This document shows, piece by piece, positions 1 to 59,314 of a stretch of DNA of 64,000 nucleotides. The first letter of the stretch is position 1. The number at the start of each line of letters is the position of its first letter. The position numbers were made by a program, and so were the translations under genes. Below the pieces are notes generated by a model. That model worked only from the letters and a program-made list of their open reading frames with translations. It made no database searches and was not told the DNA's origin. The DNA is from Clostridia bacterium. Its GTDB lineage: Bacteria; Bacillota; Clostridia; UMGS1883. The stretch spans positions 8,032 to 72,031 of the forward strand of contig JAZOSB010000025.1 in NCBI GenBank assembly GCA_045656865.1, read 5' to 3'.

Positions 1-598
1 CAACAAATGCCTTTGCAGGCTCGTTGTCGATGATTACGCAGTCAACTTTACCGATTTTAAGTGCTTCAACAGCGTCAGCACCCTTGTTGAAACGGGAAAC
101 TGTGCCAAGACCTTCGTCTTCGATATCCCATGTGGAGTAAAGGTCGCCTGTTGTACCTGTCTGAACACCGATTGTGTAATTCTTATCCCCTGTAAGGTCG
201 TCAACAGTTGTGATTTCGCTGCCCTCGTTTACGATAACAACCTGAACACCTGTTGCATAGCTTTCAGAGAAATTAACCTCTTCAAGTCTTTCATCTGTAA
301 CTGTCATACCTGCCATACCCATATCATACTTGCCTGCAACGATTGCGGGGATGATAGAGTCGAATGCAGTATCAACAATTTCAAGCTCCATACCGAGCTT
401 TTCAGCGATAACTGCTGCGATTTCTGCATCAATACCTACAACCTTGTCACCCTCGTAGAATTCATAGGGAGGGAATTCAGCGTTTGTAGCCATTGTGAGA
501 ACTTTCTTCTCTGCACCGTCATTTGTCTTTTCACCGCAAGCTGCGAACACAAATACGGAAAGTGCAATTACAAGGATAAGAGAAATAATCTTTTTCAT
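1..598 (-). CDS. Amino-acid ABC transporter substrate-binding lipoprotein (C-terminus outside window)
   Basis: Not in ORF track because it is truncated. The reverse strand reads MKKIISLILVIALSVFVFAACGEK... from an ATG at 598. It has a signal peptide with a lipobox (FAAC) and family-3 SBP motifs (ATNAEFPPYEF, GIDAEIA, YDMGMAGMT). An SD-like GGAGG lies upstream. Confidence 0.85.
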   Translation of the reverse strand, partial: MKKIISLILVIALSVFVFAACGEKTNDGAEKKVLTMATNAEFPPYEFYEGDKVVGIDAEIAAVIAEKLGMELEIVDTAFDSIIPAIVAGKYDMGMAGMTVTDERLEEVNFSESYATGVQVVIVNEGSEITTVDDLTGDKNYTIGVQTGTTGDLYSTWDIEDEGLGTVSRFNKGADAVEALKIGKVDCVIIDNEPAKAFV

Positions 599-23730: not shown

Positions 23731-24316
23731 CCGCTGAGTAGCGGAGGACGTTGTACTTTTGGGAGCCAAAAGTACCAAAAACGCGGGGGTTCCGATTCCC
23801 CCGCACCCCTGAAACGGCCTCGCAGGGGCGTAATGTTTTTTGGGCGTGGTTTTCTTTTACTGTATTGTTTTCATTTTTGCAAATTTTCCGTCTTTGAACC
23901 GCCGGCTTTAAGGCAACACTCAGTTGCCTGTTCGCCTGAAATTGCTCGCCTGCAGAGGAAAATGATGCTCGCAATTTCACGGTAGCCGACAGAAAATTTG
24001 CAAAAACCGTAGTTTAGTGCTTGGGAAGAATAGTCAAGTTTTGAGAAATTCTTTGTTGACTGGCGTAAAAATCGCTCGTATCAACTTCCTCTGCCGACGA
24101 GCGATTTTTAGTCCGCAAGGAAATAAGTTTTCCTTTTAGGACGGCGACACCAAAACAAATAATTTCGAAAAACAAAACCATCTTTGTTATTAAGGACAAG
24201 TTTTTGCTTTCTTACGCCCCTGCGAGGGCGTTGAGGGGTGTGGGGAGAATCGCAACTCCCCACCGCTTTTCGCCATTTTGGCGTTCAAAATGGCAAAGGT
24301 CTCTGCGACTCCGCAG
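23731..24316. repeat. Hyper-structured non-coding locus bounded by 80-nt imperfect inverted arms
   Basis: The arms 23753-23833 and 24212-24294 are reverse complements, with a perfect 16-bp core CCTCGCAGGGGCGTAA/TTACGCCCCTGCGAGG. Interior stems are TTTTTGCAAATTTTCCGTC/GACAGAAAATTTGCAAAAA, GAAATTGC/GCAATTTC, GGCAAC/GTTGCC and the 12-bp AAAAATCGCTCG/CGAGCGATTTTT. Confidence 0.75.
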
Positions 24317-48191: not shown

Positions 48192-48246
48192 ATAATAAGC
48201 AAATGATTTCTTTGGAATCTTAATGCGAATATAGGACCACTTCCTT

Positions 48247-48523
48247 CAACCATTACAGAATCATCCGAATCCGCCTTAAACCACGAAATTCAGGCATCTT
48301 TTGGCTTGTTGTCCTTGAAAGGCGTCAGCCTGCCTTCGTCCGCCGCGCCAAAATCTGCACAAAATTTCGGGAGTTTAAGGTTCGAAGAATTTTTTGCGAA
48401 CTATTTTTCTGCCGATACAAGGCAAAAACGTATTCCATACTGTCGTATGGGATAGGTTTTTAACGACGTAGTGACAAAAAAGAGAAAGCAAAAAACGTAA
48501 TTCGGATAATACTGTAATGGTTG
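48247..48523. repeat. Nested-palindrome intergenic element, copy B1 (277 bp)
   Basis: Termini CAACCATTACAG.../...CTGTAATGGTTG pair. With copy C it shares the blocks ATCCGAATCCGCCT, AAGGCGTCAGCCT, CCAAAATCT, ACAAGGCAAAAACG and AGAGAAAGC in the same order. Confidence 0.8.
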
Positions 48524-48640
48524 CGGAGTCGAGGCCATACGGACAGCCGGGTCCACTGCCGATTGGCGGTTTTCCGCCTTTATTGATTAAATTAGTTTTA
48601 TAAGTTGGTTACTTTATAACCGAAATGCGTAATTACGCTG

Positions 48641-48798
48641 AGCCGAACAGTAATAATCCAAACCGTGTTTTTTGCTTCCTATTTTTCGCCACTACGGCGT
48701 TAAAAGACTTGCATATACTGACGCCTTTCAAGGACGACAAATTAAAAAATGCCTAAATTTCACCGCTTGAGGCAGGTTTGGACTGTTACTGTTCGGCT
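48641..48798. repeat. Nested-palindrome element, copy B2 (158 bp, inverted and internally deleted)
   Basis: Termini AGCCGAACAGTAATAATCCAAACC / GGTTTGGACTGTTACTGTTCGGCT. Its reverse complement contains TTGTCGTCCTTGAAAGGCGTCAG (B1 has TTGTTGTCCTTGAAAGGCGTCAG) and the ...TTTTAACGCCGTAGTGGCGAAAAA... block. Confidence 0.75.
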
Positions 48799-48884
48799 GA
48801 CTTGTGAAATGGTCAATAAGAGTAGTGACTCTGTATGTCCAATATCTTAGATTTCCTTAGGGAGTCTGTCTTTTTTGAGATATT

Positions 48885-48919
48885 AACACAAGCTAAGTAA
48901 TTACGGCTTGTGTTTTTTA
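48885..48919 (+). terminator. Terminator-like hairpin in the potA leader
   Basis: AACACAAGC, a 12-nt loop, GCTTGTGTT, then TTTTT. Confidence 0.55.
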
Positions 48920-48972
48920 CTTTATGCCGTGCGAGAATTTCCTCGCCACGCTCGGAAAACGCACATGGCACA

Positions 48973-49030
48973 ACAAAGTGATTATCTCCGCACCGCAGGT
49001 GCAGTGACGGAGTCGCTTTGTTCTTTATTT
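48973..49030 (+). terminator. Three-tier hairpin plus T-rich tract just before the potA SD
   Basis: ACAAAG/CTTTGT, CTCCG/CGGAG and GCACC-GCA-GGTGC nested, followed by TCTTTATTT. The potA SD begins about 7 nt later. Confidence 0.5.
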
Positions 49031-53732: not shown

Positions 53733-53817
53733 TGGTGGGAGAGGATGGATTCGAACCATCGAAGTCAGTGACAACAGATTTACAGTCTGCCCCCTTTGGC
53801 CGCTCGGGAACTCTCCC
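53733..53817 (-). tRNA. tRNA-Tyr (GTA), class II with long variable arm, CCA encoded
   Basis: In the minus sense: GGGAGAG TT CCCGAGCGGCCAAAGGG G GCAGA CTGTAAA TCTGT TGTCACTGACTTC GATGG TTCGAAT CCATC CTCTCCC A CCA. Confidence 0.92.
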
Positions 53818-53893
53818 TGGAGCTGGTGATGGGACTCGAACCCGCAACCTGCTGATTACAAATCAGCTGCTCTGCCAATTGAGCTACACCAGC
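53818..53893 (-). tRNA. tRNA-Thr (TGT), CCA encoded
   Basis: In the minus sense: GCTGGTG TA GCTC AATTGGCA GAGC A GCTGA TTTGTAA TCAGC AGGTT GCGGG TTCGAGT CCCAT CACCAGC T CCA. As read, the T-stem has one G-U and one C-A mismatch. Confidence 0.85.
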
Positions 53894-53959: not shown

Positions 53960-54103
53960 CATTTTTTTATAAATTTTTTAATTTTTTTGGACAGGCAGGT
54001 TTTTCTGCCCCAATTCAAAAATTCTTATTGCCTTTTTCGTGAAAAAAGTATAAAATAATATAATAGCGGTAGTGTACCGCTTTGGCGAAAGGACTTGATA
54101 AAG

Positions 54104-55399
54104 ATGTTACACACAAATTTGAGTATTAACGAAAAAGGACACCTCAGTTTTGCAGGTGTTGACACGGTGGAGCTTGCAAAAGAATACAAGACCCCTCTCT
54201 ACGTTCTTGACGAGGAGCGTGTTCGGGAGAAGTGCCGTGCATATATAAATTCGATGAAGAAGTATTTTGGCGAGGATGCTCAGGCACTTTATGCCAGCAA
54301 GGCACTGAGCTTCAAGGAAATATACAGAATTGTGAAGGATGAAAATATGTCCGTTGATGTAGTTTCGGGCGGAGAAATATATACCGCCAAGGAATCAGGC
54401 TTTCCTATGGATAGAGTGTATTTCCACGGAAACAACAAAACGGATGACGAAATAGCTTTTGCAATGGATTGCGGTGTAGGCTTCTTTATGGCAGACTGCC
54501 GTGAGGAGCTTTTGGCAATCAGCCGTATTGCAGGGGAAAAAGGCATCACACAGAAAATTATTATGCGTCTTACCCCCGGAATTGATACACATACCTACGA
54601 AGCGGTAAGAACAGGTCAGGTAGATTCCAAGTTCGGTACAGCAATTGAAACGGGGCAGGCTATAAAAATGGTGGAATTTGCCCTTTCTCTTCCCAACATT
54701 TCGTTGGAGGGCTTTCATTGCCACGTAGGTTCTCAGGTTTTTGACGGAGAAACCTTCTGCCAGAGTGCGGAGATTATGATAGATTTTATTGCTCTTATTA
54801 AAAAAGAGCTTGGCTACGAGGCAAAAATTCTCAACCTCGGCGGTGGCTTCGGTGTAAGATATGTGGAATCCGACCCCCATCTTGATATAGAAAACACAAT
54901 TAAGGAAATAAGTGTTTACGTAAAAAATAAATGTGCCTCTGCAAATATAAATATGCCAAAAATTCTTATGGAGCCGGGCAGAAGTATTGTTGCTGATGCA
55001 GGGCTGACTCTTTACAGTGTGGGCAGTGTAAAAACAATTACAGGTTACAAGAGCTATGCCTCGGTTGACGGCGGTATGGGTGACAATCCCCGCTATGCCC
55101 TTTATGGAAGCTTATACAGTGCCCTCATTGCAAATAAGGCAGACAAGGAAGCTTCTTTCAAATGTACAATTGCAGGAAAATGCTGTGAAAGTGGTGACCT
55201 TATTGCAGAGGACATAAAACTGCAGAAATGTGAAAAAGGTGACATCCTCGCAGTGCTTACCACAGGTGCGTACAACTACTCAATGGCATCAAACTACAAC
55301 AGAATCCCCCGTCCCCCCATTGTTATATTAAAGGACGGAAAAAGTCGTATCGGCGTAAAGAGAGAAACCTACGAAGATGTAGTTAAAAATGATATGTAA
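54104..55399 (+). CDS. lysA: Diaminopimelate decarboxylase
   Basis: About 431 aa, fold-III PLP decarboxylase (YASKA PLP-lysine region, GGGFGV, EPGRSIVA, CESGD). I chose the ATG at 54104 because the track start at 54095 is a TTG. Confidence 0.93.
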   Translation: MLHTNLSINEKGHLSFAGVDTVELAKEYKTPLYVLDEERVREKCRAYINSMKKYFGEDAQALYASKALSFKEIYRIVKDENMSVDVVSGGEIYTAKESGFPMDRVYFHGNNKTDDEIAFAMDCGVGFFMADCREELLAISRIAGEKGITQKIIMRLTPGIDTHTYEAVRTGQVDSKFGTAIETGQAIKMVEFALSLPNISLEGFHCHVGSQVFDGETFCQSAEIMIDFIALIKKELGYEAKILNLGGGFGVRYVESDPHLDIENTIKEISVYVKNKCASANINMPKILMEPGRSIVADAGLTLYSVGSVKTITGYKSYASVDGGMGDNPRYALYGSLYSALIANKADKEASFKCTIAGKCCESGDLIAEDIKLQKCEKGDILAVLTTGAYNYSMASNYNRIPRPPIVILKDGKSRIGVKRETYEDVVKNDM

Positions 55400-55410
55400 G
55401 GAGCAATCTT

Positions 55411-56103
55411 ATGATTATTAAGCTTGCAGGACTTATTATTGATGTAAAAAATAAATATCCCTATTTTAACGATTTCTGCCGTGGCTTTGAAGCGGAGGGA
55501 AAGCCCCACTTCACCGTGAAAGTACCCGACAAGGTGCTGAAAAAAGCCATAGAAAGTAACCCTGATTATTCTGACGGATATCTGGAATCTCTTGAAATCT
55601 ACCGTATAATCTGCCGTAAGATTTTGGATTACGATGCAATGCTGATGCACTGTGCCGCAGTAGCAGTTGACGGAGAGGCGTATCTTTTCACGGCAGTCAG
55701 CGGTACGGGAAAGACTACTCATATAAAGCTGTGGGCAAAAAAATTCGGCGACAGATTTTTGGTGGTAAACGGTGACAAGCCTATTCTCCGTATGCGTAAA
55801 GGAAAGTTTTTCGCCTGCGGAACACCGTGGAGAGGTAAGGAAAACTACGGACACAATGTAGTTGCACCGATTAAGGCAGTATGTATCCTTGAACGCGGTG
55901 AAACCAACGAAATCACAAAAATTGCCCCCCATGAGGCGATTTCCACGGTGCTGACACAGACCTTACGTACTGAGGATATGCGTGAAATGGAAAAAATGCT
56001 TATTCTTACGGACAAGCTTTTAGGTAGTGTGCCTTTTTACAGACTACGCTGCAATATGAACCCCGAGGCAGCGGAAGTTTCCTATAACGGAATGCAGGAG
56101 TGA
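55411..56103 (+). CDS. P-loop protein of unknown function, HPr-kinase-like core
   Basis: 230 aa. Walker A-like SGTGKTTH is followed by LVVNGDKPIL and GTPWRGKE. The layout resembles the HprK C-terminal domain / HprK-related kinases, by recall only. Confidence 0.55.
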   Translation: MIIKLAGLIIDVKNKYPYFNDFCRGFEAEGKPHFTVKVPDKVLKKAIESNPDYSDGYLESLEIYRIICRKILDYDAMLMHCAAVAVDGEAYLFTAVSGTGKTTHIKLWAKKFGDRFLVVNGDKPILRMRKGKFFACGTPWRGKENYGHNVVAPIKAVCILERGETNEITKIAPHEAISTVLTQTLRTEDMREMEKMLILTDKLLGSVPFYRLRCNMNPEAAEVSYNGMQE

Positions 56104-56107
56104 GATA

Positions 56108-56323
56108 ATGTTTAACAGAAGAAAAATTAAAGAATCCGACAGTTGCCGTTATTGCAAAAACCTTGTGAAAAATGGTGAAGAATACACCTGCAAATATGCA
56201 AAGGATGAATTTAAGCTCAGCGGAATCTGTAAGAAATATGTGTTTAATCCCTTTGCACCCAGAGTACCCAGAGTTCGCAATTTGGACACAACAATGTTTG
56301 ACCCACTCGACTTTAAGATTTAG
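56108..56323 (+). CDS. Small 4-Cys protein (71 aa) of unknown function
   Basis: CRYC...C(K)...C spacing (CxxC-x12-C-x13-C) and a basic N-terminus. It starts 4 nt after the preceding stop, which suggests co-translation. Confidence 0.5.
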   Translation: MFNRRKIKESDSCRYCKNLVKNGEEYTCKYAKDEFKLSGICKKYVFNPFAPRVPRVRNLDTTMFDPLDFKI

Positions 56324-56596
56324 CCGAAAGAGGATAATCCGAATCCGCCTGAAACGGTGTTATTTCGGTATATTTCGGCTTGTCATCTTTGCAAGGCGTC
56401 AGCCTTGCTGCATCTTCCGCACCAAAATCTACACTAAATTCCATCCGTTTCAGGTCGCAGAATTTTAAAAGTGCAGATTTTTGGTTTCACAAGGCAAAAA
56501 CGCAGGAAATACTTTGTGTATTTCCGAGTATTTTAACACAGAGAAAGCGAAAATCTGCCTTTTAAAATCGAGGCTTGGATTATTCTCTTTCGGCTA
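56321..56596. repeat. Nested-palindrome intergenic element, copy C (276 bp)
   Basis: Termini TAGCCGAAAGAGGATAATCC / GGATTATTCTCTTTCGGCTA. Internal pairs are CCTGAAACGG/CCGTTTCAGG and CCAAAATCTACAC/GTGCAGATTTTTGG, plus the hairpin GCAAGGC-GTCA-GCCTTGC. It spans the region from the upstream stop codon to the luxS SD. Confidence 0.8.
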
Positions 56597-56606
56597 AGGT
56601 GATTTT

Positions 56607-57068
56607 ATGAAACCCCAGAAAATAGAAAGCTTTAAAATAGACCATAATAAACTAAACCCCGGAATCTATGTGTCCCGTACAGACGGGGACATTGTGACTT
56701 ATGACCTCCGCACAAGGAAGCCCAATATGGGTGATTATATGGACCATGCCACAATGCACAGTGTGGAGCATATGATTGCCACATATATCCGCAGCTCATC
56801 AATCGGACAGGATATAATATATTTCGGACCTATGGGTTGCCAGACGGGATTTTATCTCCTTGTAAGAAACGGTGATAACGATGAAGTTCTTGCCGTGGTA
56901 AAGGAAACCTTGAAAAAGATTATTTCTCACGAGGGAGAGGTTTTCGGGGCATCGCAGATTGAATGCGGAAACTACAAAAATCTTGATATAACCCTTGCAA
57001 AAGAGGAATGCAGAAAATATCTGGATATTCTGGAGAGCTACACTCCAGATTTTAAATATGAGGTGTAA
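56607..57068 (+). CDS. luxS: S-ribosylhomocysteine lyase
   Basis: 153 aa with the metal motif HSVEH and a conserved GCQTGFY block. Confidence 0.94.
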   Translation: MKPQKIESFKIDHNKLNPGIYVSRTDGDIVTYDLRTRKPNMGDYMDHATMHSVEHMIATYIRSSSIGQDIIYFGPMGCQTGFYLLVRNGDNDEVLAVVKETLKKIISHEGEVFGASQIECGNYKNLDITLAKEECRKYLDILESYTPDFKYEV

Positions 57069-57070
57069 AA

Positions 57071-57742
57071 ATGATTGGTATTATCGGTGCAATGGACATT
57101 GAAATCGAACACATCAATGCCGTAATGGAAGAAAAAGAGGAATTTACCGTAAGCGGTGCTTTGTATACAAGGGGCACTATTGACGGAAAAGATGTTGTCA
57201 CAGCGGTATGCGGTATCGGCAAGGTGTTTGCCGCTATGTGTGCACAGACAATGATAGTAAAATTTGGTGCAGACACGGTTATCAACACTGGTGTTGCAGG
57301 CGGTCTTACAGATAAAACCGACATTCTTGATACAGTAGTTGCAACGGCTCTTGTTCAGCACGATATGGATACTACATATTTCGGTGACCCAAAGGGTATG
57401 ATTTCAGGCATTAATGTGGTGGAATTTCCCTGTGACAAAGCCCTTGCAGAAAAAATTACCGCTAATGTTGAGGGTAATTGTGTACGCGGTATTGTGGCAT
57501 CAGGCGACTGTTTTATTGCAGATAATGACAAAAAGAAAGAAATCAGCGAAACCTTTAAAGCCGTTGCCTGCGAAATGGAGGGTGCAGCAATTGCACAGGT
57601 GTGTTATGTGAATAAAACTCCTTTCTGTGTGCTTCGTACTATCTCCGACGGAGCAAACGGTGAAGAGATGAGTTACGAGAAATTCAGAGAAGTAGCAGCA
57701 GAAAAAGCGGCAAATATTATTATAAAAACTATAAAAGGGTGA
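57071..57742 (+). CDS. mtnN: 5'-methylthioadenosine/S-adenosylhomocysteine nucleosidase
   Basis: 223 aa, PNP_UDP_1 fold (IGIIGAMDIE, CEMEGAAIAQV). Confidence 0.92.
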   Translation: MIGIIGAMDIEIEHINAVMEEKEEFTVSGALYTRGTIDGKDVVTAVCGIGKVFAAMCAQTMIVKFGADTVINTGVAGGLTDKTDILDTVVATALVQHDMDTTYFGDPKGMISGINVVEFPCDKALAEKITANVEGNCVRGIVASGDCFIADNDKKKEISETFKAVACEMEGAAIAQVCYVNKTPFCVLRTISDGANGEEMSYEKFREVAAEKAANIIIKTIKG

Positions 57743-57749
57743 AAATGAA

Positions 57750-58490
57750 ATGAAAAGCATTGTTCTCGCGGCAGGATATGCTACAAGGCTGTATCCTCTT
57801 ACTGAAAATTTCCCCAAACCTCTTTTGGAGGTTCGGGGAAGAAGTATTCTTGACAGACTTCTTGACGACATCGACAGTATTGACGGAATTGACGAGCATA
57901 TTATAATCTCCAACCACAAGTATGTGGAGCATTTTGAAAACTGGAAGAAAGAGTGCAAGCTCAAAAACCCCGTTACAATTATTGACGACGGCTCAATCTC
58001 CAACGAAACACGGCTTGGTGCGGTTAAGGATATACAGTTTGCAATTGATACCTTGAAGCTTGACGATGACCTTCTGATTGTTGCAGGGGACAATATTCTT
58101 GATTTTTCATTCAAGCCCTTTGTAAAGCTTTTCTGGGAGAAAAACACAGCCGTTGTTATGTGCAGCTACAAGGAGGATGTAAATGCTCTTCGTAAAAGCG
58201 GTGTTATGATTCCCGACGCAGATTTTAAGGTAATTTCTATGGAGGAAAAGCCCCAGGATCCCAAGAGCAATTGGTGTGTAGGTCCGTTCTACATATACAA
58301 GAGGGAGGAGCTTCCCCTTGTAAAACAGGGTATCGAGGACGGCTGCGGTACAGATGCACCGGGCAGTTTTATCAGCTATCTGTGTCAGAAAACAGACGTG
58401 TACGCTCTTAAAATGCCCGGCGCACGTTATGATATAGGAACACTTGAAAGCTATGAAGAAGTAAAGAAAATATTTAGTGAAAAGAACTGA
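57750..58490 (+). CDS. Sugar-phosphate nucleotidyltransferase family protein
   Basis: 246 aa with the N-terminal motif LAAGYATRLYPLTENFPKPLL. The specificity is unknown. Confidence 0.75.
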   Translation: MKSIVLAAGYATRLYPLTENFPKPLLEVRGRSILDRLLDDIDSIDGIDEHIIISNHKYVEHFENWKKECKLKNPVTIIDDGSISNETRLGAVKDIQFAIDTLKLDDDLLIVAGDNILDFSFKPFVKLFWEKNTAVVMCSYKEDVNALRKSGVMIPDADFKVISMEEKPQDPKSNWCVGPFYIYKREELPLVKQGIEDGCGTDAPGSFISYLCQKTDVYALKMPGARYDIGTLESYEEVKKIFSEKN

Positions 58491-58504
58491 AAAAGAGTGC
58501 TTGG

Positions 58505-59314
58505 TTAACCAAGCACTCTTTCTGCGTTTTTATACTTAATTTTTTCTAAATCATCTTCATCAAGGTCAAGACTTAAAAGATAATCATACGCCTGACGGGG
58601 ACTTTGCCAGGGATTATCGCTTCCGAAAAGGAATTTGTCTGCACCGTGGCGGAGAATCATATCCTTGCACTTTTCTTTGTCCAGAAATCCGCAGGTCATT
58701 GAAGTATCCATATAAATATCGGTGCCTATTAAATATTTATCCACATCATCCCACAGGGAAAAACTGCCGAAATGTGCCGCAATAATATTTTTGCAGCCTG
58801 TTTTGTCAAGAAGTTTTCTAAGCCTTTCAGGGGTACATTTAAAGGGTGGTTTATATCCATAATCCTCCCCTGCGTGAAACAGCACCCACAAGCCCAGCTC
58901 TTTACATTTTTTAACAATTTTTTCTACAATAGGCTCATCAATAAAAAACGTCTGAAATTCAGGATGCATTTTTATTCCTTTAAGACCATAAGAGGCAATA
59001 TACTCCAGAGTTTCCTCCCAATCCTCCTGACGCGGATGAACGCTGCCAAAAGAAATAATCCTCTTGTTATCGGCTATTTCCTTGGCAAAGCGATTTATGG
59101 TTGTGTGCTGTGTGGGAGAGGTTGCAATAGGCATAACAATACTCATATCAACCCCGCACTCGTCCATTGAACGGAGAAGTCCTTTTAAAGTGCCGTCGGT
59201 TTGAGGCTTTAAAAGAAGTGTTCCGTGAGTATTTATAATTCCCTGCTCCAATACCTCCAATGCGCGGGAGGCAATTTTATCGGGGAATAAATGTGTGTGA
59301 AAATCAATTAACAT
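58505..59314 (-). CDS. Amidohydrolase family metal-dependent hydrolase
   Basis: 269 aa. N-terminal IDFHTHLFP motif and a TIM-barrel hydrolase pattern. Confidence 0.75.
   Translation of the reverse strand: MLIDFHTHLFPDKIASRALEVLEQGIINTHGTLLLKPQTDGTLKGLLRSMDECGVDMSIVMPIATSPTQHTTINRFAKEIADNKRIISFGSVHPRQEDWEETLEYIASYGLKGIKMHPEFQTFFIDEPIVEKIVKKCKELGLWVLFHAGEDYGYKPPFKCTPERLRKLLDKTGCKNIIAAHFGSFSLWDDVDKYLIGTDIYMDTSMTCGFLDKEKCKDMILRHGADKFLFGSDNPWQSPRQAYDYLLSLDLDEDDLEKIKYKNAERVLG

Follow-up and report, generated by a model that had tools for sequence, protein, structure and literature searches.

We found that the gap upstream of luxS in a member of the Clostridia is filled by one copy of an apparently undescribed, MITE-like repeat family (MITE, miniature inverted-repeat transposable element). 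The window, i.e., the whole stretch of DNA that was analyzed, comprises 64,000 nucleotides of contig JAZOSB010000025.1 of a Clostridia bacterium. The copy in question, which we call copy C, lies between a gene for a small Cys-rich protein and luxS. It is likely, with a probability of roughly 0.7, that copy C is a MITE-type mobile DNA repeat, non-autonomous and tolerated as a passenger in the transcript of the luxS operon. Copies A and B of the same family are located elsewhere in the window.

An earlier note on this DNA had observed that copy C (56321-56596) fills the whole gap between a stop codon and the Shine-Dalgarno (SD) sequence of luxS. This observation is accurate. The TAG stop codon of the upstream 71-aa open reading frame (ORF), at 56321-56323, forms the first three bases of copy C, and the right end, ...CTCTTTCGGCTA, is directly followed by AAGGTGA. 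However, the note also took this position as a sign of a role in luxS expression. Given that relatives have empty sites at this position, the placement is explained by the insertion of a mobile repeat.

The empty sites were found by comparison with contigs from four bovine or gut metagenomes, in which the relatives are mostly 85-95% identical to the window. Contigs of related strains join position 56320 to 56595 with one TA shared, such that 56321-56594 are skipped. In more diverged strains, the Cys-protein gene leads to luxS through ATAAGGAGAGTTTC-ATG. A single TA is present in the empty sites of metagenomes X3 and X4, and in the orthologue in L051, a related locus from a metagenome-assembled genome (MAG). 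L051 is 78% identical to the window, has the same adjacency of the Cys-protein gene and luxS, and reads ...AAAATT TAA GGAGAAAAAT ATG. The empty sites of metagenomes X1 and X2 have a comparable TAA junction, ATAAGGAG.... The pattern ...ATT-TA-AGGxGA...ATG occurs in three sets of related sequences, and the native junction in its empty form is TAAGGTGA.

Since the empty sites of the relatives have a single TA, the ancestral junction was a TAA stop codon touching the SD. Copy C was inserted into the TA of this stop codon, and the TA was duplicated. The insertion changed the stop from TAA to TAG, and left the SD and the start codon intact. The fit from stop codon to SD therefore arises because a mobile repeat entered the TA of a stop codon that adjoins an SD. 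In the four metagenomes, the read depth on copy C is 10-60x that of its flanks.

Copy C has many relatives. We recovered ~190 homologues on ~160 contigs of gut Clostridia. A pattern representing the conserved core of the repeat retrieved 108 loci in species-representative genomes, and nhmmer recognized homologues in 108/108. A second pattern, from the other side of the core, retrieved 78 metagenome loci, of which 53 hold copies according to nhmmer. The MAGs that carry the repeat are labeled Clostridia, Acutalibacteraceae, Oscillospiraceae, Ructibacterium, Faecousia or Congzhengia, and come from the gut of horse, sheep, goat, deer, yak and human. The repeat is ~275 bp long and contains only short ORFs, none of which is conserved across the alignment. 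The TA is found at most ends (T in 47/55 and A in 53/55 copies at the left end, T in 65/66 and A in 62/66 at the right end; overall 85-98%). The flanks of different copies are unrelated, as are the functions of the genes downstream. Nested, tandem, adjacent-inverted and internally deleted copies also occur. The repeat therefore has the properties of a MITE: it is small and non-coding, has terminal inverted repeats, shows a target duplication in the filled versus empty sites of copy C, and exists as dispersed, polymorphic copies with unrelated flanks.

Individual loci illustrate the unusual arrangements. At L111 (2726-3171), one copy is nested in the hairpin-1 apex of another, and at L048 (513-1062) two neighboring copies have inverted relative orientation. 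L138 (11421-11561) has an internally deleted copy similar to copy B. At L172 (2890-4440; OGRO01005849.1), short pieces with only the CGAGTATTTTAAC half of the core are located between dapA/dapB-like genes, beside GC-rich hairpins. They could be remnants of decayed copies or belong to a shorter, related repeat.

The repeat does not correspond to a known RNA. Rfam has no family for it, as the best E-value was 0.4, to unrelated models, with none reaching the gathering score, and in 15 further loci no Rfam match overlapped a copy. We therefore rejected a known structured RNA family (riboswitch, ribozyme or small RNA), given the lack of a covariance-model match. We also found no match to the repeat in plasmids. 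In phages, there was only one 44-nt core match, in an unannotated fecal contig. In viral contigs the first pattern gave 6 chance matches and the core pattern none. A full-text literature search on the core sequences returned only coincidental primers.

In principle, copy C could be a gene for a small RNA with its own transcription, on either strand. Its stable fold, the conserved core and the occurrence of the family in metatranscriptome assemblies would suit such a gene. However, the TA...TA flanks, the polymorphism and the nested and deleted copies are the behavior of mobile DNA, there is no conserved promoter on either strand, and there is no Rfam match. We regard a small RNA gene as very improbable.

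The ends of copy C pair with each other. TAGCCGAAAGAGGATAATCC at 56321 is mirrored at 56577-56596 by its reverse complement, which contains one mismatch. The inverted-repeat ends match at 20/20 and 19/20 positions, with 0 such matches expected by chance. The terminal arms are 21-26 nt long, and are 95% complementary in copy C. The predicted plus-strand RNA fold has an energy of -111.4 kcal/mol, as compared with -61.3 +/- 4.8 for shuffled sequences (z -10.5). Both the minimum-energy and the centroid fold consist of a 22-bp terminal stem, P1, that closes a three-way junction of two ~110-nt hairpins. This architecture differs from the hairpin with arms of roughly 135 bp that the earlier note had described: P1 is followed by two separate hairpins, and a forced rod, in which the left half pairs with the right half, is 16 kcal/mol worse.

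The comparison of plus- and minus-strand folding that had been recommended on that occasion did not clearly separate the strands, as the minus strand is nearly equal (-107.9 kcal/mol, z -10.3). The accompanying remark on G-U pairs at both non-Watson-Crick positions of the plus-strand terminal stem holds for copy C, where the minus strand has mismatches instead, but there is no such bias in the family as a whole.

We analyzed the conservation of structure using an alignment of 70 full copies and RNAalifold. The terminal inverted repeats are present in 70/70 aligned copies. Compensatory double changes occur at 46/62 consensus pairs and, within P1, at 22/24 pairs. Standard pairs make up 93.6% of cells versus 35-46% when the partners are slid by 1-3 columns, and there are 785 double-change cells versus 125-155 in the slid versions; 0/500 shuffles reach the observed values. 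The copies share descent, so these cell counts are not event counts, and arm-to-arm repair in hairpins could imitate selection for pairing. The outer sequence of P1 depends on the subfamily (TAGCCGAAAG, TAGCCTAACAAG, TAGCCAAAGCATT, TAGCGTGACAGT, TAGGGTAACCCG, TAAGGTAAGCGG and others). Up to three types of terminal stem are found in one genome, and the 3′ end is always the complement. The core of the family corresponds to the apex of hairpin 2, and consists of RGGCAAAAACGCAG, an 8-bp covarying stem-loop and CGAGTATTTTAAC. Each half of the core is conserved in the sample that was picked by the other half.

The pairing shows no preference for one strand. Across the 70 copies, wobble cells in P1 comprise 70 G-U vs 67 A-C, and the pairs predicted on both strands have 87 G-U vs 72 A-C. 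The number of G-U-rich columns is 191 with the plus strand folded vs 189 with the minus strand folded, and the minus strand is slightly more stable in 53/70 copies. Given these balanced counts, the pairing is upheld in a strand-neutral manner. The asymmetry of G-U pairs was accordingly rejected as proof of an RNA fold, since it applies to copy C only. The relevant paired molecule may be RNA or single-stranded DNA, and the data fit either.

The family is enriched on stop/SD junctions, mostly in the sense orientation. Based on the nearest long ORFs, and relative to the orientation of the element, the flanking genes are (+,+) in 25 cases, (-,-) in 7, divergent in 7 and convergent in 5, i.e., co-orientation with the local genes is ~3.5:1 (25:7, ~78%). 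About half of the upstream genes end at most 10 nt from the left end or slightly inside the element, and several use its own TAG. Using a script, we counted the ends at which an SD core is followed by a start codon within ~35 nt, with a strict and a loose motif. Such a signal adjoins 30/104 right ends (strict) or 47/104 (loose), versus 7/79 and 12/79 left ends. The opposite-strand controls gave 2/104 and 16/104 for right flanks, and 3/79 and 8/79 for left flanks. Right and left ends differ in the pooled data (p = 8e-4 strict, 1.4e-5 loose) and in the genome sample alone (p = 0.005 strict, 3e-6 loose). In the metagenome sample alone the direction is the same (14/38 vs 4/24), but not significant.

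Several copies are located between a leader terminator and an SD, and copy A lies in a leader loop (see below). Therefore, we infer that copies in the sense orientation must permit read-through. In the (-,-) cases (n=7), the start codon downstream is at least 32 nt from the element. A replication-strand cause of the orientation received weak support. GC skew, which is confounded with gene direction, agrees with the orientation of the element in only 73/119 loci, and on this test we set such a cause aside.

These placements and the conserved pairing bear on the possibility that the family moves as a folded single strand, like REPIN/RAYT, IS200/IS605 or attC systems. The P1 sequence turns over fully between subfamilies with its complementarity kept, the internal helices covary, and the pairing is strand-neutral. 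Flanks of the TA...TA type are formally equal to cutting after TA at both ends, and a DDE partner was detected neither in the window nor in 186 loci. Roughly 80% of genes are on the leading strand in Clostridia, such that fully strand-specific insertion would by itself give ~78% co-orientation, and the observed 25:7 resembles this usual leading-strand fraction. However, one TA in the empty site and two in the filled site are the classic signature of IS630/Tc1, and the agreement with GC skew is poor. Moreover, no HUH or RAYT-like gene recurs near the copies, and arm-to-arm repair could create apparent covariation without selection. We consider movement as a folded single strand improbable. An element of the REPIN/RAYT or IS200/IS605 type in the strict sense was rejected, given the TA duplication at copy C and given that no HUH (Y1) gene recurs near copies.

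The tight array of genes around copy C suggests how it reaches RNA. The genes at 54095-58490 all have plus-strand orientation and are spaced 2-11 nt apart, except for the 283 nt that hold copy C. The earlier statement that the plus-strand genes on both sides lack an obvious promoter is borne out, as no promoter-like site was found between copy C and luxS. Based on this same-strand array, the missing promoter and the occurrence of the family in metatranscriptomes, co-transcription of copy C with luxS appears likeliest. Copies of the family are present in gut and bovine metatranscriptome assemblies, in which one contig passes the right end into the flank (no strand information). The raw-read RNA runs X40 and X41 had 0 reads. 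Within the element, the alignment revealed on both strands only promoter-like sites that fit the consensus at 9/12 positions and whose location is not conserved. Therefore, we rejected a promoter within the element as the cause of the orientation bias.

A simple terminator scan flagged the core on both strands. We also calculated a terminator-type score with an approximate form of the d'Aubenton-Carafa formula. This score is <0 in 104/104 forward and 102/104 reverse copies (p = 0.05 for the strand difference). The core hairpin is AU-rich, and the U-tract begins 3-4 nt past the stem. An intrinsic terminator in the core was rejected, as the score is sub-threshold in 206/208 strand-copies and the hairpin composition and U-tract offset are unfavorable.

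These results are relevant to the idea that the reverse orientation stops or destabilizes transcripts, through a terminator or an RNase site in the core. Only sense copies would then survive in operons, and reversed copies would need a downstream promoter. The core hairpin does lie between a conserved A-tract and a U-tract, and is flagged on both strands. The distance of at least 32 nt to the downstream start in the seven (-,-) cases also speaks for this idea, as does copy B, which is reversed in the potA leader and has lost exactly the core, although this is anecdotal. By contrast, the near-uniform negative scores leave little difference between the strands, and the hairpin is AU-rich with a displaced U-tract. 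We consider such polarity improbable.

We next consider the effect of copy C on luxS. The earlier note had suggested a translational gate, but sequestration of the SD is not predicted: its unpaired probability is 0.30 with and without copy C. The distance from stop to start has grown from ~9-12 nt in the empty form to 283 nt in the filled form. As a result, weaker translational coupling is expected, though P1 brings both sites together in space. The 22-bp P1 helix is plausible as an RNase III substrate, by analogy with other repeats.

It is conceivable that copy C is a cis-regulatory RNA that is kept for luxS, as an RNase III site, mRNA stabilizer or translation gate. A near-perfect 22-bp helix ends one base before the SD, covariation conserves the structure, and the copies favor the sense orientation directly 5′ of SDs. 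There are also precedents in Correia elements, which are cut by RNase III, and in ERIC sequences, which affect mRNA stability depending on orientation (PMC10969869, PMC3049150). However, the insertion is polymorphic in close relatives, and the genes downstream of the family's copies are unrelated. Folding predicts no SD sequestration, the wobble pairs have no plus-strand bias, and there is no competitive alternative fold, the rod being +16 kcal/mol. It is therefore unlikely, though not far-fetched, that copy C is a regulator of luxS, and we found no evidence that it is a dedicated one.

We propose that copy C is instead carried passively in the lysA...luxS-mtnN transcript, being inside a tight same-strand array. 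In the RNA, P1 would close the insert into a self-contained three-way junction, with the stop codon at one end of the stem base and the SD at the other, and the accessibility of the SD would be unchanged. An insertion that folds in this way would be tolerable, which could explain the frequent stop/SD sites and even the insertion of copy A into a leader hairpin loop. The likely effects on luxS would be the loss of tight translational coupling and possibly an RNase III cut in the long stem, with no dedicated switch. Transposition presumably occurs in trans by a TA-duplicating transposase of the IS630/Tc1-mariner type, as the TA duplication and the terminal inverted repeats point to this class.

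Several observations weigh against a MITE that is merely tolerated. Neither the window nor the 186 loci (~1.2 Mb) yielded an autonomous element or a transposase with matching ends in searches for pairs of conserved inner terminal repeats 330-4000 bp apart, for generic inverted repeats at 800-2600 bp and for recurrent neighboring ORFs. The only recurrent families near copies were ABC (UvrA-like), AraC helix-turn-helix and MATE-like proteins. The terminal repeats differ between subfamilies, even within a genome, yet stay complementary, although a sequence-specific DDE transposase would have no need of this. The flanks of copy B are TGA rather than TA, and copies A and L050 end in CA...TG. The sense bias and SD adjacency could reflect function and not mere tolerance. 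Finally, RNA was seen only at the level of the family, unstranded and with DNA carry-over possible, and transcription of the luxS locus itself was not observed.

Because of the TGA flanks, the CA...TG ends and the strict complementarity of fast-changing ends, we keep a structure-dependent mechanism in consideration. In such a mobile module, the ends would pair in a single-stranded DNA or RNA intermediate, entry would be strand-specific, at the TA of stop/SD junctions and in leader loops, and the core would affect the host transcript according to orientation. We think that this combination is rather unlikely to be correct. The MITE-type reading of copy C is preferred.

The family can be compared with known repeats. 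Correia elements (NEMIS/CREE) of Neisseria are likewise small and non-autonomous, with terminal inverted repeats (~25 bp), TA duplication and many intergenic, gene-adjacent sites. Their long RNA stem is cut by RNase III (reviewed in PMC10969869). However, the two share no sequence similarity, and the Clostridia repeat is about twice as long (~275 bp), with two internal hairpins, a conserved core and ends that vary by subfamily. Co-transcription occurs in Correia elements, and is probable here. Correia elements can also create promoters and bind IHF; for the Clostridia repeat these activities, like cleavage by RNase III, are hypothetical.

ERIC/IRU sequences of enterobacteria and Yersinia are also imperfect palindromes in transcribed intergenic regions, often near stop codons, and have orientation-dependent effects on mRNA (PMC3049150, PMC10969869). 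Unlike our repeat, they are ~127 bp long, form a single hairpin and belong to Proteobacteria. Their orientation-dependent RNase effect is hypothetical for the Clostridia repeat.

Among the repeats of Streptococcus pneumoniae, which is also in the Bacillota, BOX, RUP and SPRITE have stable folds and an orientation that mirrors the coding bias, and they insert into each other (PMC3049150). The core of SPRITE resembles a terminator, and RUP has been connected with IS630-Spn1 (PMC3049150). While convergent gene pairs carry an excess of the pneumococcal repeats (PMC3049150, Table 1), the Clostridia repeat is mostly co-directional, with 25 (+,+) vs 5 convergent cases, and often on a stop/SD junction.

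REPINs, which are mobilized by RAYT, resemble our family in that pairing is preserved through compensatory change. Bertels and Rainey reportedly described such changes in REPIN hairpins in 2011, and these are said to suggest recognition of a folded single strand. However, REPINs have no target duplication, are shorter, and have a GTAG motif and a RAYT gene flanked by REPs, none of which was seen for the Clostridia repeat. The MITEs of the IS630/Tc1-mariner class, such as cyanobacterial Nezha and plant Stowaway, share the TA duplication, terminal inverted repeats and a hairpin formed by the whole element. They differ in that no IS630-like partner with matching ends was found for the present family, and in that one copy has a TGA duplication.

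The features of the locus and the other family copies in the window are listed in Table 1.

Table 1 Coordinates of copy C, its parts, its flanking genes and copies A and B
Feature	Position	Strand	Remarks
Copy C of the repeat family, complete	56321..56596	+	276 bp including two flanking TA; 274 bp absent from empty sites
Left TA of duplicated target	56321..56322		With first G of copy C forms TAG stop; empty site reads TAA
Right TA of duplicated target	56595..56596		luxS SD directly after
Left terminal inverted repeat, 5′ strand of terminal stem P1	56321..56342	+	Fold, covariation
Right terminal inverted repeat, 3′ strand of P1	56575..56596	+	Fold, covariation
Internal hairpin 1	56347..56455	+	Basal helix CCTGAAACGG/CCGTTTCAGG; apex CAAGGC-GTCA-GCCTTG; helices 2 and 4 covary
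Internal hairpin 2	56461..56570	+	Helices 5-7 covary
Most conserved family core	56490..56537	+	CAAGGCAAAAACGCAG, 8-bp covarying stem-loop, CGAGTATTTTAAC; weakly terminator-like on both strands
Cys-rich 71-aa ORF, with its stop codon as insertion target	56108..56323	+	L051 orthologue ends ...ATT TAA
luxS ribosome-binding site and luxS	56597..57068	+	AAGGTGA 56597-56603, ATG 56607; Pfam LuxS E = 3.8e-48
Copy A, full length, ~75% identical	48247..48523	+	CA...TG ends; same architecture as copy C
Copy B, internally deleted	~48639..48800	-	TGA...TGA flanks; reversed relative to potA

We now note properties of the genes around copy C. According to Pfam, the gene downstream of luxS belongs to the MTA/SAH-nucleosidase family, and the upstream lysA-like gene encodes a pyridoxal phosphate-dependent decarboxylase of the Orn/DAP/Arg family. 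Pfam had no match for the 230-aa P-loop protein or for the 71-aa Cys-rich protein upstream of luxS. The 230-aa protein has a Walker-A GTGKT, and its gene and the 71-aa Cys-rich ORF lie within 55411-56323. An exact look-up of the LuxS protein found no entry on record. A bidirectional terminator-like hairpin is present at 58492-58521, 3′ of the luxS gene array. Another terminator-like hairpin with a T-run, at 57029-57049, lies within the 3′ end of luxS, just 5′ of the start of the nucleosidase gene, and could represent an internal attenuator or have arisen by chance. Two minus-strand tRNA genes (53736-53893) separate the pot operon from the lysA-like gene.

Copies A and B are both upstream of potA. 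An ldcC-type leader RNA (Rfam RF02440, SpF59/ldcC RNA) at 48232-48562 precedes the potABCD-like operon, and copy A is inserted into the loop of its first hairpin. This hairpin reads CACTTC-AAAAT-GAAGTC in L051 and CACTTCCTT[A]CGGAGTC in the window. Against the Rfam model, the intact L051 orthologue scores 71.6 bits and the window, with copy A inside, 43.2 bits. The ldcC motif and its 3′ extension (48510-48640, 48800-48833) have very deep coverage in gut metagenomes. Copy A is absent from related strains and from the L051 orthologue. Copy B, which has neither the 3′ half of hairpin 1 nor the 5′ arm and apex of hairpin 2, is absent from related strains in 4/4 runs and also from L051. Judging from these comparisons, copies A and B are insertion polymorphisms too. 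L051 has its own independent copy (94-369, minus strand, JAZNYX010000062.1), which is in the sense orientation and located exactly between the terminator hairpin of the potA leader and the potA SD.

Additional features were observed in this region. A perfect palindrome, GCGTAATTACGC, is found at 48627-48638, with copy B directly after it, and other metagenome homologues have variable hairpins at this position. A 126-nt segment at 48893-49018, between the potA leader terminator and the potA SD, is missing in relatives, where 48892 is joined to 49019 in three runs. This segment, which may represent a further small mobile element, has TA...TA flanks and a raised depth in two metagenomes, and none of the fetched loci contains a homologue.

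At 23785-24260, the window contains a palindromic element of another kind (~476 bp). Its terminal inverted repeats are 49 nt long and 78% complementary, its fold is predicted at -199 kcal/mol, and homologues are present in L032 and L053. The element probably represents a second MITE-like family in these genomes.

The exact fit of copy C between stop codon and SD thus requires no special luxS regulator, as it results from the entry of a TA-targeting repeat into a compact operon. The family is a widespread structured repeat of uncultured Clostridia in the gut of herbivores and humans. As many of its copies are located at contig ends, the repeat breaks MAG assemblies. Its presence within operons and leader RNAs means that it can confuse the annotation of intergenic RNAs and riboswitches. 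The noteworthy traits of the family are its pairing-constrained ends, its conserved core and its sense placement on stop/SD junctions. The turnover of the ends with their complementarity kept, together with this placement, provides material for testing how MITEs are recognized and how they are tolerated in transcripts.

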